A DNA stretch of 64,000 bases from Clostridia bacterium. GTDB lineage: Bacteria > Bacillota > Clostridia > TANB77 > CAG-465. Position 1 is the stretch's first letter. Each line of letters starts with the position of its first letter. Made by a program: the position numbers and the translations under genes. Shown piece by piece: positions 1 to 63,829 of this stretch. The stretch covers positions 93,712 through 157,711 of the forward strand of contig JAZSJJ010000005.1 in assembly GCA_045534225.1 (NCBI GenBank). Reading direction: 5' to 3'. Below the pieces are notes generated by a model. That model did no database searches, was not told the DNA's origin, and was given only the letters and a program-made list of their open reading frames with translations.

Positions 1-996
1 AACTACATATTAAGCCTTAAAGAAAATAAAGAATATAAGGTAACGAGTTTGGATGCGGGTTCTTTAATGCATGAAGTATTAGAAGAATTTTCTAAATACG
101 TTCTTTCGAAAAGTATAGGATGGCAAGACATAGTTGTAAATGAAAAAATAAAAGAAAAATGCTTTAAGGAATTAGATAAGATAACAGAAAAAATATTTGA
201 AGAAAGTTATTCTAAATTTTTAACTAGTCCTAGATATGTCGCGCTAAAAAAGAAGATAAAAAATAGCATGAGAAAGACAATATATGCAATAGCGGATAGT
301 TTTAATCATAGTGAGTTTAGACCACTTGGATATGAAATAGCATTTGAAGATGATGCCTTGTTTGCACCTATTAAAGTAGAGCTAGATGATGGTAAAGCGC
401 TATATTTAAGAGGAAAAATAGACAGGGTAGATAGCGCAAATATAAATGGAATGACATATCTAAGAATCGTAGATTATAAATCGTCTAAAAAAGATGTTAC
501 ATTAAATGATGTAAAAGATGGAATTATGCTTCAACTTATGTCATATATGTGGGCAATGCTAGAAAACAAAGAAAAGATTAGTAAAGAGGGCAAAGTTTTA
601 CCAGCTGCAGTAAGTTACTTTACGGTTTCGAGACATCTTTTAAGTTTAGATACCTATGAGCATGATGATGCGAGAATAAGCAAAAAATTAAAAGAAGCAT
701 TAAAGCTAAGAGGAATATATATAAGAGATATAGAAATCCTAAAAAAATTAGATAACGAAGTAAACAACAATTCCGAATCATATTTAGCATTAACCTCAAA
801 AGCCATGACTAATGATACTAGAACATTACCAGAAGATGTATTTGTAGAAGAATGTAATAATATGCGTAATATATTAAAAGAAGTGTCTACAGATATGGTT
901 AAGGGCAATGTAAGTATATGTCCAAATAAAAAAGTAAGAGGTGTTTGCGATTATTGTAAATTTGGAACAGTATGTAGAAAAGATATATTGAATTAA
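1..996 (+). CDS. addB: ATP-dependent helicase/nuclease subunit B (AddB/RexB), C-terminal part; the 5' end lies outside the window
   Basis: The reading frame is open from base 1. The C-terminal nuclease region carries the AddB-type Fe-S Cys cluster (CPNKKVRGVCDYCKFGTVC, pattern C..C-x2-C-x5-C). Confidence 0.75.
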   Translation, partial: NYILSLKENKEYKVTSLDAGSLMHEVLEEFSKYVLSKSIGWQDIVVNEKIKEKCFKELDKITEKIFEESYSKFLTSPRYVALKKKIKNSMRKTIYAIADSFNHSEFRPLGYEIAFEDDALFAPIKVELDDGKALYLRGKIDRVDSANINGMTYLRIVDYKSSKKDVTLNDVKDGIMLQLMSYMWAMLENKEKISKEGKVLPAAVSYFTVSRHLLSLDTYEHDDARISKKLKEALKLRGIYIRDIEILKKLDNEVNNNSESYLALTSKAMTNDTRTLPEDVFVEECNNMRNILKEVSTDMVKGNVSICPNKKVRGVCDYCKFGTVCRKDILN

Positions 997-53889: not shown

Positions 53890-53963
53890 GCGGGATTAGT
53901 TTAGTGGTAGAATACAAGGCTTCCGATCTTTTGGCGTGGGTTCGATTCCCACATCTCGCTCCA
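53890..53963 (+). tRNA. tRNA-Gly (anticodon TCC), atypical
   Basis: Acceptor stem gcgggat / atctcgc, T-arm gtggg-ttcgatt-cccac, anticodon loop cttccga, CCA end. Unusual features are a C-U mismatch at the top of the anticodon stem and G at position 37. Confidence 0.6.
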
Positions 53964-54045
53964 TTTTAAAACAACTTGCGAACTATCGTAGGTTGTTATT
54001 TTTGTATATACAATGTTCTCTTGCTAGAAAGGGGGACATTTTTTA

Positions 54046-54173
54046 TGCTTGAATTTAAGATAATACAAGAATTAAAGCCAAATACTGAAATACTAGAAAT
54101 CATTAAAAACTACACTTACAAAACTAAAAATGGAAATATAAATGGGTTCGGAAGAATAAGACTCACATATTAA
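54046..54173 (+). CDS. hypothetical small protein (42 aa), possibly a gene remnant
   Basis: GGGGGA RBS followed by an ATG. It lies in AT-rich DNA next to the tRNA together with other short ORF fragments. Confidence 0.25.
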
Positions 54174-54588
54174 AAAGAACATAAACAAGCACTTTATACA
54201 ACACTTTTAATGACAAATGAGCTTACAAATCATCTTATTCTAGTAAGTAAAAATGCAGAAGATTTGCTAAATAATTTGATGGAAAGTTACAAAGAAACTG
54301 ACGAAAAATTATCTGAAAAAAAAGTAAAGCAATGAATCAAATTGAGTGGGTTAAACTAATGAATAATTACAAAAATATAGTAGAAGAAATTATATTAAAA
54401 GAATATATTTTTATATAAGAAAATGTAAAAAAAGAGGAAAAAATTATACAATAATTTATATTTTTAGCTAATGTGGGAGTAAAAAATTAAAATAGCCAGC
54501 ACTGAATTTGTACTCCCATACAAATTCATATGTGGGGAAAATCCCCAACCTCCCTTAAATTTTGAAAAATAATAATTAGAAAAAAATA

Positions 54589-54629
54589 CAATGAAGATTT
54601 CATTTTCTACATTGTATTTAATTTTATTA
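54589..54629 (-). terminator. rho-independent terminator of the minus-strand four-gene operon
   Basis: Inverted repeat aatacaatg ... cattgtatt with a 15-nt loop, followed on the minus strand by a T-run. Confidence 0.5.
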
Positions 54630-54633
54630 AATA

Positions 54634-55293
54634 TTAATAATTTGCATTCCACTCTGATAAAAATTCATTTACAAAATCTTTCATAAAATTGGTTCTTTTT
54701 TCAGCAAGTTCTTTGGCTGTTTTTGTATTCATATTATCACCAAGTTTAAATAGTTTATGATAGAAATGATGTATTGTAGATTCATCATCCCCATTAGATT
54801 CGGCATAATCGTTTTTTTCATTTAATGGAGCACTAGGATCGTACATAACAACATTGTGTGCACCACCATAAGAAAAAGTTCTCCCAATTCCAATAGCACC
54901 TATAGCATCTAAATTATCTGCATCTTGCAATATTAAAGTGTTTATATCATCAACATTATTTCCATTCCAATTATATTGTTCGTGATATTCAATACAATAA
55001 CATATCTTTTCAACTTGTTCATTAGTTAAATCTATTTTTGATAATATATTTCTAATAGTATCTAAAGAATCTTTTGGAGAAACAAAAGTACCTGTTTCAT
55101 TTTGCATTATTCTATGTACATCATGAAGAAAAGCAGCAACACCTATTACAATTCTATCTCCACCTTCTTTTGCTTGAAGATACAATGCAGTGTTCATTGT
55201 TCTTTCTAAATGACTAATATCGTGACCACTAGAATCTTTTTTAAATAATTCGATTACAAGAGGTCTTAAATCTTCTATATATTTTTCTAACAT
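54634..55293 (-). CDS. HD-domain phosphohydrolase
   Basis: H..HD..H..H..D pattern (SGHDISHLERT ... FLHDVHR ... QDADNLDAIG). Confidence 0.7.
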   Translation of the reverse strand: MLEKYIEDLRPLVIELFKKDSSGHDISHLERTMNTALYLQAKEGGDRIVIGVAAFLHDVHRIMQNETGTFVSPKDSLDTIRNILSKIDLTNEQVEKICYCIEYHEQYNWNGNNVDDINTLILQDADNLDAIGAIGIGRTFSYGGAHNVVMYDPSAPLNEKNDYAESNGDDESTIHHFYHKLFKLGDNMNTKTAKELAEKRTNFMKDFVNEFLSEWNANY

Positions 55294-55304
55294 ATTAATC
55301 CTCC

Positions 55305-56468
55305 TTAAAAATCTTTAAATATTTTCTCTAAGTTTTGTAAGGCTATTTTTAGTTTTTCTTTAGGTAAGGCTATATTGATTCTTTGAAATCCTTTACCAGA
55401 ACTACCAAACATTTTTCCGTTATCTAACCATAATTTTGCTTCTTTAATCATTAATTCTTCTATTTTATCATCTGATAAATTTAATTCATTAAAATCTAAC
55501 CAAAGAAGATATGTTCCCTCGGGATAAATTAATTTAATCTTTGGTAATCTTTCTTTTAAAAATATATCTACATAATTTATATTATCTAACAAATATTTTT
55601 TTAATTCATTTAACCAATTCTGACCTTTTTCATAAGCTGATTGGCAAGCAACTAACCCCATTATATTTATAAGGCTATAGCCTGTATTCCATAATTCTAA
55701 TTGGAATTTTTCACGAATTTCTTCATTTGGTATAAATATATTAGATACTTGTAATCCAGCTAAGTTAAATGTTTTTGTTGGAGCAGTACAAAGTATTACT
55801 TGATTTTGAATATCTGTACAATTTAATATACAAGTATGATTTCCTTTCCAAATAAAATCGCTATGTATCTCATCACAAACAATAAATACATTATATCTTT
55901 TGCAAATTTCAATAATTTTATTTAATTCATTTTTAGTCCAGACTTTACCAACTGGATTATGAGGAGAACACAACAAATATGCTTTAACATTATATTGTTT
56001 AATTTTATTTTCAAAATCTTCAAAATCTATTTCATAATGACCATTTGTTAGTACTAAATCACTACTTACAATTTTTCTTTTATTATCTTTTACGACTTCA
56101 GTAAATGGATAATAAACAGGATTATTTATTAATACACAATCATTTTCTTGAGTAAGTGTTTTTACTGCTGTTGCTAGAGCAAATACTATACCGGGAGTTA
56201 TTACAAGCCACTCTTGTTTTAACTCTACATTATGATTTTGTTTATACCAATTTTCAATCGCATTAAAATATGTCTCATCATTTTTAGAATATCCAAATAC
56301 TCCGTGGTCTATTTTTTTATGCATATCATTTAATATTTCTTCGCAACATTTAAAATCCATATCAGCGACCCACATAGGAAATACATCATCTGGCTTATTC
56401 TTATCAGATTTAAAATCGTATTTTAAACTATTAGTTTTGTTTCTATTTATTTCTTCGTCAAAATTCAT
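55305..56468 (-). CDS. patB: PLP-dependent C-S lyase (MalY/PatB family aminotransferase class I/II)
   Basis: The VFPMWVADMDF motif and a length of 387 aa are typical of MalY/PatB cystathionine beta-lyases. Confidence 0.7.
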   Translation of the reverse strand: MNFDEEINRNKTNSLKYDFKSDKNKPDDVFPMWVADMDFKCCEEILNDMHKKIDHGVFGYSKNDETYFNAIENWYKQNHNVELKQEWLVITPGIVFALATAVKTLTQENDCVLINNPVYYPFTEVVKDNKRKIVSSDLVLTNGHYEIDFEDFENKIKQYNVKAYLLCSPHNPVGKVWTKNELNKIIEICKRYNVFIVCDEIHSDFIWKGNHTCILNCTDIQNQVILCTAPTKTFNLAGLQVSNIFIPNEEIREKFQLELWNTGYSLINIMGLVACQSAYEKGQNWLNELKKYLLDNINYVDIFLKERLPKIKLIYPEGTYLLWLDFNELNLSDDKIEELMIKEAKLWLDNGKMFGSSGKGFQRINIALPKEKLKIALQNLEKIFKDF

Positions 56469-56480
56469 ATTTTACCTCCT

Positions 56481-57305
56481 TTAATTATTTTCTATTTCTT
56501 CTAAAATTTTATTCCAATCATCTCTATATAAAGCATTAGTTAATATATTTTCTAAATATATGTTATATATATTTTCATTATATGTGGGTTGAACCAAAGG
56601 CATATTAGCCATCAGAAATAATAGAACAGCTAAAGTTTTATCATCTGTTTTTTCAAAAAATATTCCTCTTGTATCATTGAAACTTATTTGACCTTTACAA
56701 GAATTTATAATTGTGTAATCTCCAGCAACAATAACATCAAATTGATGTATACGTTTTATTTTATTATCTTTATAAAAATTTAAAATAGTATCAATTAATT
56801 TTTCAATATCAGAATATGTTTTCTCTGCATATAGGATAGTAGGAATTTTATATGTATATTCATTTTTATCTTTTTCCCAAATGAGACCATTTCTAACTCT
56901 AGTCAATTCTTTTACACTTTTTATTTGTTTGAGTGCTCTTTCAATTTCATCCTTATCGCATAAAGCCCCTTTAATCTCCACTGCATAATCTACACCATCT
57001 GCAAAAATAACTGATGCCTTTTTATTTTTTATATCTATGGTATGTGGATGTGATGGATCAAGTATTATACAATCTATAGATGCACTTCTTTTATTATAAC
57101 TATCTATAATATTTCCTTTTGTAATTCTATAAGGAAAAGGAAAATATTTTTCAAAAAAGGAGTGAAATATTTCTTCTCGTCTATCTGCAATTTCTTGTGG
57201 AGTACCTTTTCCTTCAACAGAAGCTTTAGACAAACCTAATTTTAATTCTTGATATTCTAACTCTAACAATTTAATAAATTCATCATTCATTCTTAAGTTC
57301 TCCAT
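56481..57305 (-). CDS. hypothetical protein with a possible PD-(D/E)XK nuclease-like motif
   Basis: SIDCIILD ... (27 aa) ... VDYAVEIKG fits the hhhD ... hhhExK core. GC is about 25%. The ORF overlaps the upstream gene by 23 nt. Confidence 0.4.
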   Translation of the reverse strand: MENLRMNDEFIKLLELEYQELKLGLSKASVEGKGTPQEIADRREEIFHSFFEKYFPFPYRITKGNIIDSYNKRSASIDCIILDPSHPHTIDIKNKKASVIFADGVDYAVEIKGALCDKDEIERALKQIKSVKELTRVRNGLIWEKDKNEYTYKIPTILYAEKTYSDIEKLIDTILNFYKDNKIKRIHQFDVIVAGDYTIINSCKGQISFNDTRGIFFEKTDDKTLAVLLFLMANMPLVQPTYNENIYNIYLENILTNALYRDDWNKILEEIENN

Positions 57306-58011
57306 TCTTAGTTTTTTCTATACTTTCCATAATTTTGCATAAATGTATTCCTAAATACGTAAATGTAAAACAAAGATATGTATTAAATGAATCAGTCATT
57401 TTATTTGGAATATATTTTGATAATTTTATAAAATTGTTATATGATAGTTTTTCAAATACATTGAATATATTTGAACTTTCTTGACTTGGCATTAGAGTAA
57501 GTGATTCTCCAATTATCAAACTATTCTCATTACTAACAAAATCATCTTTATTTACACGATATTCATAATTCATTATTAAATCGGGAACAAATTCATAATT
57601 ATTGCCAATTTCTTTTTTTAAATGATTTACATCAAATTTTTCATTTCCTCGTTTTTTCCAAAGATTAAAGTATAACACATCTATATCATTTTTTGTTAAT
57701 TTCATAAAACCATCAATAATATTTTCGAAGTTGTCTTCTGACATATTTAATATATTTACTGCTATTTCAATAAAATAATCTGATTCTTCAGATAACGCTT
57801 TTACAATTAGATTTTTGATTTTATATCTATTGATAATCTTGTATTGAAATATATCAAATTCTTGTAATTTTTTATTTAAAATATCTATTTTTTCATTTAT
57901 AATTTCTATTTCATCAACACTTAAATAAGAATTTAAGTATCCATTCATTAGAGAGCCAATTGTACCATAAGAATTTATTTTTAAATTACTACAATTTTTT
58001 ATTTGTTGCAT
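57283..58011 (-). CDS. hypothetical protein (first gene of an AT-rich four-gene operon)
   Basis: 242 aa with no recognisable motif. GC is about 25%. Candidate extended -10 upstream (ttgtataat on the minus strand). Confidence 0.45.
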   Translation of the reverse strand: MQQIKNCSNLKINSYGTIGSLMNGYLNSYLSVDEIEIINEKIDILNKKLQEFDIFQYKIINRYKIKNLIVKALSEESDYFIEIAVNILNMSEDNFENIIDGFMKLTKNDIDVLYFNLWKKRGNEKFDVNHLKKEIGNNYEFVPDLIMNYEYRVNKDDFVSNENSLIIGESLTLMPSQESSNIFNVFEKLSYNNFIKLSKYIPNKMTDSFNTYLCFTFTYLGIHLCKIMESIEKTKNGELKNE

Positions 58012-58218
58012 TAAAGACCTCCTTAAAATAAGAGTTTAAATCAATATAATTATACAATAAAATATAAAAAATTCCCATACTTCCTTGAAAAAATATGGGA
58101 ATTACAATATAATGTTTTTAGAAAGAGAGCGTTGTAGTTCGTAAGCTGTAGCTTAATCGCTCCATCATTAATTAAGGAAAATAAAATTATAAAAATATAA
58201 TTGTTAAAAATGTTAATA

Positions 58219-58253: not shown

Positions 58254-59261
58254 TCAATTATTTTGTTCATTTACATCATATTCATCAAAGATGTTTCCTA
58301 CAATTTCTTCTAGGATATCTTCTAATGTTACTATACCTACATATTTGTTGTTGTCTCTAACTATAGCCATATTTTCGTATGCTCCATTTAGTATAAGGAA
58401 TGCATCGTCTATTATAGTATCAGAATCTAGTATTTTTACTTTACGTAGATATCTGTATAGGCTAAATTCTTTATCTCTGCCCAGTATTAAGTCTTTAATG
58501 TTAATAATACCTAGAATCTTTTCACCTTCCATGACAGGAAATCTTGTAAATTTAGATTCTCTAATTTTAGAAATTATAGTTTCGTTGCTATCTGATGTAT
58601 CTATGTATACTACGTTATCTTTTTTAGTCATAATATCTTTAATTGTTATATCGTTAAATTCAAATACTCTAAGTAGTAGCTTCTTTTCTAATTCCTCTAG
58701 GTTTGAGTCTACAATTGTATCTTTTATCTCATCCTCATCTTCGTCTTTAGGAGGAGATATCTTTAACAATTTTTCTAAAGCGTTTGTAGACAACTTTAAT
58801 ATTAATATGAATGGTTTGAATATTAATATAACAAAGTTAATTATATTTACCATTTTGTAAGCTATTTTTTCTGGATTTGCTATACCTATTTTTTTAGGTA
58901 CTAGTTCGCCAAATACAAGTGTAAAATATGAAAGGATTATTGTTATAACTACGATTAATATGTTTATTTGCATAGCTTCAGAAATAAATGGAATATGAAT
59001 ATATTCTGCTATTTCGCTTGCAAAACTATCTGCTGCAAATGCGCTTGCTAAAAATCCAGATAAAGTTATTGCTACCTGTATGGCAGATAAGAACGTACTT
59101 GAGTCATTAAGTAGACTTACAATCCTTTTTGCTTTTTTGTTACCTTTCTTAACTTCTTTACTAAGTTTGTATTTATTTAAAGATAGAAACGCTATTTCAG
59201 TTGAAGAGAATATGCCGTTTACTATTATAAGAATAATTAGAATTAATATTTTAATTAACAT
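58254..59261 (-). CDS. HlyC/CorC (CNNM) family transporter with DUF21 and CBS domains
   Basis: N-terminal DUF21 four-helix transmembrane region, then tandem CBS domains and a CorC_HlyC-like C terminus. Confidence 0.7.
   Translation of the reverse strand: MLIKILILIILIIVNGIFSSTEIAFLSLNKYKLSKEVKKGNKKAKRIVSLLNDSSTFLSAIQVAITLSGFLASAFAADSFASEIAEYIHIPFISEAMQINILIVVITIILSYFTLVFGELVPKKIGIANPEKIAYKMVNIINFVILIFKPFILILKLSTNALEKLLKISPPKDEDEDEIKDTIVDSNLEELEKKLLLRVFEFNDITIKDIMTKKDNVVYIDTSDSNETIISKIRESKFTRFPVMEGEKILGIINIKDLILGRDKEFSLYRYLRKVKILDSDTIIDDAFLILNGAYENMAIVRDNNKYVGIVTLEDILEEIVGNIFDEYDVNEQNN

Positions 59262-63682: not shown

Positions 63683-63829
<147 letters not shown>

Follow-up and report, generated by a model that had tools for sequence, protein, structure and literature searches.

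Layout of the A-B locus

A 64,000-nucleotide (nt) stretch from a Clostridia bacterium (GenBank assembly GCA_045534225.1, contig JAZSJJ010000005.1, positions 93,712 to 157,711 of the forward strand), referred to as the window, carries on its minus strand a string of four closely spaced genes: gene A, which comes first, gene B, an aminotransferase gene and an HD-domain hydrolase gene, with gaps of 12 and 11 nt following B and the aminotransferase gene, respectively (Table 1). This study concerns A, which encodes an orphan protein, and B, which encodes a relative of the nuclease NucC. The guanine-plus-cytosine (GC) contents of A and B were 21.0 and 25.1%, respectively, that of the A-B cassette was 23.6% and that of the stretch 53961-58165 was 24.9%, compared with 31.9% for window positions 1-53000. 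An AT-rich gene pair heading an operon, as described in a preceding sequence-only reading of this DNA, is therefore what lies here. The aminotransferase and hydrolase genes belong to the same transcription string and lie outside the conserved cassette defined below; they are neighbours and not parts of the module.

Protein B combines the NucC fold with an intact catalytic triad

NucC proteins are the DNA-degrading effectors of the cyclic oligonucleotide-based antiphage signalling system (CBASS) and of type III clustered regularly interspaced short palindromic repeats (CRISPR) systems, and form homotrimers that hexamerise upon ligand binding. Protein B matched the Pfam family DUF6602 (PF20247) over residues 36-134 with 70.2 bits (E 1.5e-19), exceeding the gathering threshold of 27 bits, and PF20247 was present in all listed B homologues; a weak Pfam match to NERD was also obtained. 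In PADLOC, the models matched were Cas-associated PD_DExK (4.9e-18), NucC (2.6e-17, residues 35-227) and the CBASS NucC effector (1.1e-16). Consistently, the only meaningful matches of the single B sequence in the PDB were NucC proteins from Vibrio, Serratia, Pseudomonas and E. coli, and a profile of 33 family members retrieved NucC chains only (best 9.7e-9). The profile alignment confined the detectable sequence similarity between B and NucC to the nuclease core, residues 31-137.

A model of B was then predicted from the family alignment (predicted local distance difference test, pLDDT, 89.4; predicted template modelling score, pTM, 0.89), in which a long N-terminal helix was evident. Foldseek ranked NucC chains in all of the top 14 positions (E 5.8e-12 to 1.7e-9, probability 1.0), with template modelling (TM) scores of 0.56-0.69 over approximately 260 aligned columns, while the first non-NucC match had an E of 0.27. 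The superposition on NucC spans the whole predicted structure, the C-terminal half included. The comparison with restriction-endonuclease-like folds that the sequence-only reading had proposed thus gave a match at E 5.8e-12 to NucC, a protein of that fold, and the downstream protein, which had been called PD-(D/E)XK nuclease-like, is predicted to be a full-length structural homologue of NucC.

The NucC active site has the form IDx30EAK, in which D73 and E104 hold Mg2+, and the D73N mutant is inactive (bioRxiv 10.1101/694703). The two segments of B that had been singled out as its nuclease core, SIDCIILD and VDYAVEIKG, are present and aligned to this catalytic ID...EAK, so that the motif reads IDx31EIK in B and IDx31E(I/V)K in the family; D73, E105 and K107 were invariant across the 33 aligned members. 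The ratio of nonsynonymous to synonymous substitution rates (dN/dS) of B versus its relatives was 0.07-0.18. The family spans phyla, with proteins of approximately 270 residues that share 45-50% identity across phyla. These results demonstrate that B is a PD-(D/E)XK protein with the NucC fold and an intact catalytic triad; judged from this fold and motif, it would be a metal-dependent DNA endonuclease.

Residues of B at the ligand-binding positions of NucC

NucC binds cyclic tri-AMP (cA3) via R53, Y81 and T226, plus the V227 backbone, and its gate loop closes and is latched by H136 and Y141 (bioRxiv 10.1101/694703). In HMMER alignments, 'LPKRY' of NucC was aligned to 'FPFPY' of the B family and 'DRQYsPF' to 'NPSH-PY', that is, R53 is replaced by an invariant Pro53 and Y81 by an invariant His81. 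Both residues fall within FPFP and PSHP, the motifs that are best conserved in the B family apart from the catalytic ones, and this argues for a conserved but different functional site. The stretch equivalent to the gate loop, approximately residues 129-150, varied in both length and sequence in the 33-member alignment, and no conserved His/Tyr pair was found in it.

Potential cyclase partners were also looked for. No cGAS/DncV-like nucleotidyltransferase (CD-NTase), Cas10 or CRISPR array was found in the 64-kb window, and no CD-NTase or Cas10 in approximately 12 inspected genomic contexts of the B family. With two cA3 contacts replaced and no cyclase partner found, the trigger of B is probably other than cA3, and as far as its sequence can be read, B does not appear to be a canonical cA3-gated NucC.

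Protein A is an orphan

Neither the window A protein nor any of the 30 aligned members of its family matched Pfam, NCBIfam, PADLOC or PHROG; searches of the PDB with the sequence and with the profile gave no match, and no methyltransferase signature was found in A. The predicted model (pLDDT 81, pTM 0.78) consists of a seven-helix N-terminal domain (approximately residues 16-139) and a small alpha/beta C-terminal domain (approximately residues 145-235), and Foldseek searches of the PDB and BFVD with it returned nothing below E = 0.08. Weak matches to winged-helix and GAF-like proteins recurred among the Foldseek results at probabilities below 0.45, and were not used as evidence. The empty domain, PDB and Foldseek searches agree with the impression that the upstream protein has no recognisable features.

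A word-indexed search for A yielded 79 clusters, all unnamed, at identities of at least 44%. An exhaustive profile search of 1.84 billion representative proteins gave 28 matches, of which three were full-length clusters; it returned just the same small family and fragments, and no more distant relatives. No matches to A were obtained in phages or plasmids. The carriers are uncultured low-GC Firmicute metagenome-assembled genomes (MAGs) labelled Mollicutes, Bacilli, Clostridia or Clostridium sp. CAG:343, so the A family is small and confined to one group of uncultured Firmicutes, whereas the B family spans phyla. The dN/dS of A versus its relatives, 0.08-0.17, is close to that of B and indicates that A is a real gene under purifying selection.

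A and B are tightly coupled and form a mobile cassette

Most B relatives are called at 269 amino acids (aa) and start with MN(D/E)EF, which is the equivalent of Met6 in the window. At this conserved start, ATG 57290-57288, a GGAG lies 9 nt upstream, while the ATG of the longer open reading frame (ORF), which gives a 274-aa B and exists just in the window's lineage, has no such site. Counted from the conserved start, A and B overlap by 8 nt (ATGAATGA); the 23-nt overlap first reported depended on the lineage-only ATG and is discarded. The overlap ATGAATGA is common to the homologous loci L001-L004, whereas a 1-nt gap separates A from B in L010 and L013. The tight coupling of the two genes is thus conserved across relatives, while the length of the overlap is not. 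From the 8-nt overlap or 1-nt gap we infer that A and B are translated from one mRNA.

The region was compared by blastn with all fetched loci, and a block of approximately 1.69 kb, with approximately 80-85% nucleotide identity, was found to have identical end points everywhere. In the window this block extends from 58164/58165 to 56476/56468, and its content is the 155-nt leader, A and B. The cassette was found in at least four different genomic contexts and in at least 20 complete A+B pairs, which bears out, within this clade, the expectation that the two genes co-occur in other genomes; no intact B without an upstream A was found in the clade. Further, the dN values of A and B rise in parallel, and both genes are under purifying selection.

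The flanks of the cassette vary. The sequence ahead of the leader differs between loci, even between the window and L009, a MAG contig 97-98% identical to it. The window, L009, L028 and L038 have the aminotransferase gene downstream of B. In L001-L004 and many metagenome loci this place is taken by an unrelated 342-aa gene, in L010 by a 122-aa gene and a methyltransferase gene, and in L013 by a serine recombinase gene. A, B and the leader are therefore a discrete, mobile and co-inherited cassette. The 342-aa gene (L001 8826-9854 and homologues in most gut loci) contains an H...HD-like motif, SLDHS...LFHDIATPAFKH, and gave no Pfam or PDB sequence match; its possible kinship with the HD hydrolase of the window was rejected, since the two proteins are unrelated.

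The leader and its inverted repeat

Thirteen leaders from different contexts were aligned, and the invariant blocks were TTACGAAC, TCTCTTTCTA, GTATGG and TATAAT. Homology between loci begins sharply at 58164/58165. One leader copy, in L017, has no A-B directly behind it and lies before an unknown 136-aa ORF, 600 nt upstream of a gene fusion that contains A (see below). The invariant TATAAT would be the -10 element of a promoter; a good -35 element is absent near it, TGGGAA being found instead, and this weak -35 is why a consensus promoter scan missed it.

The leader of the window also contains the perfect 10-bp inverted repeat AATTCCCATA-N14-TATGGGAATT, which occurs once in the window and in 0 of 100 shuffles. 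As RNA it would form a 15-bp stem of -15.7 kcal/mol (z = -3.9), and the hairpin was also detected by a terminator scan. In L009 it persists with a single C-to-T substitution, the base pair being kept as G-U (-13.4 kcal/mol). In the L001, L010 and L028 leader types, however, the 3' arm is shared and the 5' arm is not, and no significant hairpin was found in them, folding being no better than that of shuffles; RNAalifold on the 13 leaders gave -3.9 kcal/mol and no covariation, and Rfam was empty at the leader. The repeat, proposed earlier as a candidate operator or attenuator, therefore exists as described and is specific to the window's lineage, L009 being the only other place where it was found, and a conserved operator or attenuator was rejected. 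Given its position, upstream of the sole invariant -10 and over the -35, it is likewise no conserved operator, and a role as attenuator within the mRNA is improbable. This hairpin is a lineage-specific addition that may serve as an insulator against read-through from the upstream CNNM/CBS gene or as a local operator.

In all 13 leaders, an invariant pyrimidine block, CTCTCTTTCT (58112-58121), is predicted to pair with the Shine-Dalgarno sequence of A, AAGGAG(G/A) (58018-58024, minus strand). No covariation was seen in this pairing, and CTCTCTTTCT, being upstream of the likely -10, may lie outside the transcript.

The cassette occupies the far end of a low-GC island beside tRNA-Gly

The octamer TCGCTCCA, which ends the tRNA-Gly gene, was present in four copies in the window versus 0.5 expected, and two of these lie at the two island ends. 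The boundary at TCGCTCCA was found independently by locus comparison, and the distal copy is a putative att-like island end. A decamer, TTRCGAACTA, has two window copies, just inside both island ends and in inverted orientation; in relatives it is one arm of the terminator hairpin behind tRNA-Gly. That hairpin is perfect in the relatives, ACTTACGAACT...AGTTCGTAAGT (compared with window 53964-54010), and one of its arms is also present in the cassette leader, adjoining a reversed copy of the 3' end of the tRNA, which suggests that the outer 45 nt of the leader came from the region downstream of tRNA-Gly by recombination. The start of the leader was also considered as a tRNA remnant; this was rejected, as just the last 8 nt of tRNA-Gly match and neither ARAGORN nor Rfam found a tRNA there.

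Between the tRNA and the HD gene lies a TnpV-like remnant, the resemblance to TnpV being judged by eye and by blastn; it is taken as the relic of a serine-recombinase/TnpV mobile element, and it recurs beside the cassette in many loci. In nine other loci tRNA-Gly flanks the cassette-bearing region, sometimes in tandem copies. Tandem tRNA-Gly copies were seen in L051 (5449-5625), a transfer-messenger RNA gene adjoining tRNA-Gly in L026 (8020-8507), and, in L035 and L037, tRNA-Gly copies flanking the cassette unit on either side. Modules joined at intergenic junctions make the accessory region a mosaic, and the tRNA-Gly locus looks like a hot spot for island accumulation. The low GC content, tRNA-Gly, the TnpV remnant and the sharp cassette boundaries all agree with the earlier view of an island-borne module, and we read the region as a decayed integrative island at tRNA-Gly, approximately 4.2 kb long, whose far end holds the A-B cassette.

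Table 1. Positions of the genes and sequence features of the locus in the window.
Feature	Position	Strand	Remarks
Gene A	57283-58011	minus	242-aa ORF; first gene of the cassette
Gene B	56481-57290	minus	269 aa from the conserved start
Gene B, longest ORF	56481-57305	minus	274 aa
A-B overlap, ATGAATGA	57283-57290	minus	8 nt; A stop codon and conserved start of B
Asp73 codon of B, GAT	57072-57074	minus	catalytic; equivalent to NucC Asp73; Asp78 in the 274-aa ORF
Glu105-Ile-Lys107 codons of B, GAG-ATT-AAA	56970-56978	minus	ExK half; equivalent to NucC E104-A-K106
Conserved leader/promoter region	58012-58165	minus	155 nt; travels with A-B; starts TGGAGCG
TATAAT	58049-58054	minus	likely -10 element; 38 nt upstream of the ATG of A; invariant in 13/13 leaders
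Inverted repeat, AATTCCCATA-N14-TATGGGAATT	58070-58103	minus	hairpin followed by a T-run; 3' arm over the -35 position
Class I/II aminotransferase	55305-56468	minus	downstream of B
HD-domain hydrolase, YpgQ/YedJ-like	54634-55293	minus	downstream of the aminotransferase
CNNM/CBS membrane protein gene	58254-59261		upstream of the cassette; own terminator hairpin
tRNA-Gly(TCC)	53890-53963	plus	3' end faces the island; proximal boundary
TnpV-like remnant	54183-54527	plus	includes a 41-aa ORF (54210-54335); between tRNA and HD gene
TCGCTCCA	58157-58164	plus	8-nt direct repeat of the tRNA-Gly 3' end; coincides exactly with the outer cassette boundary

Window positions 1-53000 hold housekeeping genes (TGT, QueA, DNA polymerase III alpha, PheST, LeuS, FolD and RNase Y), sporulation genes (SpoIVA, SpoIIP and Spo0A_C matches) and a GGDEF/EAL protein. 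The sporulation genes point to a spore-forming Firmicute as the probable host, although related MAGs are labelled 'Mollicutes'. The first ORF of the window (49-996) is a PDDEXK_1 nuclease fragment, AddB-like in our own judgement. A perfect (AC)15.5 dinucleotide microsatellite lies at 63715-63745, downstream of a large ATP-binding cassette transporter gene, and a short CA-run was noted upstream of the cassette in L009.

The cassette decays in natural populations

To describe the state of the cassette in nature, 39 metagenome loci with B, mostly from the human gut, were recovered. As far as the contigs reach, both genes were intact in 16 of the 39, one locus had a +1 slip in an A-run of gene A, another had a slip in a T-run of gene B, and 21 carried deletion alleles in which part of B was missing, nearly all of them including the catalytic core. 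At least five distinct deletions were distinguished: A residues 1-122 joined to B from residue 104; A residues 1-171 joined to B from residue 86; A residues 1 to approximately 186 joined to B from approximately residue 230; an internal loss of approximately residues 124-230 of B; and removal of the whole of A plus B residues 1-134. Deletion alleles at such a frequency are typical of costly accessory genes, and the cassette is often inactivated.

Every allele that had lost part of A had also lost the catalytic Asp of B, while B alone was damaged, with A intact, in L041 and L044. The sole lesion confined to A is the +1 slip in the A-run, a possible assembly error. This asymmetry is a prediction of an antitoxin model; the informative cases are few, and both homopolymer slips are possibly assembly errors.

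In-frame or near in-frame A::B deletion fusions make up many of the natural alleles (L042-L062, L018-L020; P0068, P0070, P0073-P0079), and such fusion ORFs are common in the protein database, P0070 having 229 member sequences and P0073 having 83 from NCBI. The junction deletion and the internal B deletion (approximately residues 124-230) were found both separately and together, and this pattern suggests either recurrent deletion or recombination between alleles.

A and B have other neighbours at greater distance

In a sister lineage, where A is 60-67% identical, the gene after A overlaps it by 4 nt and encodes a 184-aa protein (L014 7663-8217; L015 8714-9268). This partner has no Pfam match and matched PDB entries 5GUS/5GUQ (E 8e-4), which we take to be the Zymomonas ASCH protein, an ASCH ribonuclease. 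In L017 (8001-9260), a 419-aa protein (P0047) carries A joined in frame to an alpha/beta hydrolase (PF00561/PF06821); an APH-type phosphotransferase gene follows the fusion, and two large serine recombinase genes flank it. A 44%-identical A relative precedes a TPR protein, and A also occurs alone. Such placing of A, directly ahead of other enzymes or fused to them, is what a constant module with exchangeable partners would show.

More distant B relatives were stand-alone genes in the contexts inspected. They lay in a prophage, in a Gramella genome, at the end of a viral contig beside a serine recombinase gene, immediately after an MmeI-type enzyme in a defence island that also contains FRG, Macro and HD_4 genes, and beside AbiA-HEPN, AAA_14 and BrnT/BrnA genes. 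Conflict-type genes were also seen adjoining the cassette or A, namely those for a PemK/MazF toxin, a CHAT-domain protein and a KilA-N protein (L010 7133-7672; L016 6810-7910; L013 3218-4066), the KilA-N gene directly abutting A.

Interpretation and alternative explanations

The locus is tentatively interpreted as a mobile defence-type nuclease with a lineage-specific controller, an interpretation to which we give somewhat less than an even chance. It would be a 1.69-kb mobile two-gene cassette, made up of leader, A and B, at the far end of a decayed island. B would be a DNA endonuclease with the catalytic Asp...Glu-x-Lys that is triggered by a signal other than cA3, and A would be its controller, which either holds the nuclease off or triggers it on infection. 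By analogy, activated B would cut invading or host DNA and so halt the spread of phage. Nuclease activity, the defence role and any interaction between A and B are what we infer from the results above. In favour of this interpretation count the NucC fold and catalytic site of B, the replaced ligand contacts and the lack of a cyclase neighbour, the joint inheritance of A and B, the exchangeable partners of A, the defence-island and prophage settings of distant B relatives, the reported defence role of Damona (see below) and the frequent decay.

Several observations weigh against this interpretation. On the side of the trigger, sequence alignment reached neither the C-terminal cA3 contact (T226/V227) nor the gate loop, the apparent loss of cA3 sensing in B is read from two residues, and a cyclase could be encoded elsewhere in the genome, beyond the 64-kb window. 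On the side of phage defence, no B relatives were found in 50,697 sequenced phage genomes, and they were nearly absent from plasmids, with one weak plasmid match; IMG/VR held two contigs with B relatives. On the side of A, the protein has no recognisable domain, so the controller role is a guess. B relatives at 44-56% identity never occurred with A in the inspected contexts, and as A occurs without B and B without A elsewhere, their pairing may be no more than adjacency within a single mosaic cassette.

A toxin-antitoxin or addiction module is an unlikely explanation. In such a module, B would be a DNA-cutting toxin and A the co-translated antitoxin that binds and blocks it and maybe represses the promoter, and the two genes would serve to stabilise the island and not to defend against phage. 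Type II toxin-antitoxin pairs typically show this gene order and tight coupling, the cassette is surrounded by mobile-element cargo that includes a PemK/MazF toxin and BrnT/BrnA pairs in related loci, and in the window lineage an inverted repeat covers the -35 position. The lesion pattern also fits, as losses of part of A always went together with loss of the B catalytic core and B was damaged beside an intact A in two loci; however, informative single-gene lesions are very few, and the inverted repeat is absent from the other cassette lineages. Further, B-family nucleases stand alone in many genomes, with no A-like neighbour, which indicates that lethality in the absence of an antitoxin is not inherent to B. 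A matches B in size, neither a DNA-binding nor an antitoxin domain was found in A, and A also pairs with non-toxin partners, namely the ASCH-like protein, the hydrolase and the TPR protein.

It is likewise doubtful that A and B are functionally independent, with B a self-contained nuclease system and A an unrelated accessory gene that merely shares its transcript. Each gene occurs without the other, the tiny A family of one Firmicute group contrasts with the phylum-spanning B family, the accessory region is a mosaic joined at intergenic junctions, and Damona, a DUF6602 defence system described below, was reported among mostly single-gene systems. But in the clade that they share, A and B are always adjacent and in the same order, with the 8-nt overlap or the 1-nt gap; they move jointly among at least four contexts inside fixed boundaries, they diverge in parallel, and an intact B without its upstream A was not found there.

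That B is a canonical cA3-activated NucC, served in trans by a CBASS cyclase or a type III CRISPR system elsewhere and with A irrelevant to its control, is highly improbable: although the whole predicted structure superposes down to the C-terminal half, the PADLOC NucC model covers residues 35-227 and the genome was seen over 64 kb alone, two of the three side chains that contact cA3 have given way to invariant residues (R53 to Pro and Y81 to His), no conserved His/Tyr latch was found in the gate-loop region, whose length varies, no CD-NTase or Cas10 was found in the approximately 12 inspected family contexts, and sequence similarity to NucC is confined to residues 31-137.

A bolder and less likely form of the controller interpretation can also be put forward. 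The A family may be an undescribed sensor or regulator module for interchangeable effectors (a NucC-fold DNase, an ASCH-like protein and a fused alpha/beta hydrolase), and the B-type DUF6602 proteins may be NucC descendants with a rebuilt allosteric pocket, the invariant FPFP and PSHP lying where NucC contacts cA3, that answers another small molecule or a protein such as A. If true, this would mean a cyclase-independent gating of a NucC-type suicide nuclease.

NucC is the textbook case of a restriction-type nuclease turned into a second-messenger-gated suicide effector. B belongs to a widespread sister group of NucC that has kept the fold and the active site, in which the cA3 contacts are gone and for which no cyclase was found in the inspected contexts. 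That the most conserved non-catalytic residues of the B family sit at the ligand-binding positions of NucC offers a concrete hypothesis, and A is a candidate new regulatory module, one lineage-specific answer to how stand-alone NucC-like nucleases are silenced or triggered. The superfamily, the named and uncharacterised Pfam family and the reported occurrence of single-gene relatives in defence are already known. New are the coupling of B to an orphan that elsewhere pairs with other enzymes, and the finding that other, invariant residues occupy the NucC ligand-contact positions throughout a phylum-spanning subfamily. In practical terms the gain is modest: a variant of a defence nuclease, and a small cassette that hops beside tRNA-Gly and decays fast in gut populations.

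Comparison with known systems

Type II toxin-antitoxin operons resemble A-B in having two small co-translated genes on mobile DNA with frequent loss or decay and, for the window lineage, an inverted repeat over the promoter. They differ in that A has no recognised antitoxin or DNA-binding domain and is as long as B, and in that B homologues occur without any partner.

Type II restriction endonucleases such as SgrAI and NgoMIV share the PD-(D/E)XK catalytic core with B. SgrAI is the closest non-NucC fold relative of NucC (bioRxiv 10.1101/694703). It was among the weak Foldseek matches of the B model with an E of approximately 0.5, which is not significant, whereas the NucC match is. Unlike in type II restriction-modification, no methyltransferase was found in or beside the window cassette, whose neighbours are the aminotransferase and the HD hydrolase.

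NucC (PDB 6P7O, 6P7P, 6Q1H, 6UXF and 7ZGV), the cA3-activated effector of type III CBASS and type III CRISPR, is like B in its full-length restriction-endonuclease-like fold, its size and its long N-terminal helix, and the catalytic motifs, IDx30EAK in NucC and IDx31E(I/V)K in B, stand at the same residue numbers. Unlike NucC, B has the invariant Pro53 and His81 in place of the cA3-binding R53 and Y81 and a gate-loop region that is not conserved, and instead of a cyclase or CRISPR partner, none of which was found in the window or the inspected contexts, it has the orphan A upstream.

A paper on domain-centric defence discovery (PMC13069673) makes no mention of NucC or DUF6602. Damona is reported as a single-gene DUF6602 anti-phage system of the Vibrio cholerae chromosomal integron, and its protein matches the PADLOC models Cas PD_DExK and small CBASS endonuclease (bioRxiv 10.1101/2024.07.02.601686). 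Compared by description, Damona and B have in common DUF6602, the matches to PD_DExK and CBASS models and a small mobile cassette without a signalling partner, and homologues of both are often found in prophages. Unlike the single-gene integron cassette of Damona, B is coupled to A and lies on a tRNA-Gly/serine-recombinase island. Damona is thus a direct precedent for cyclase-free DUF6602 nucleases in defence.

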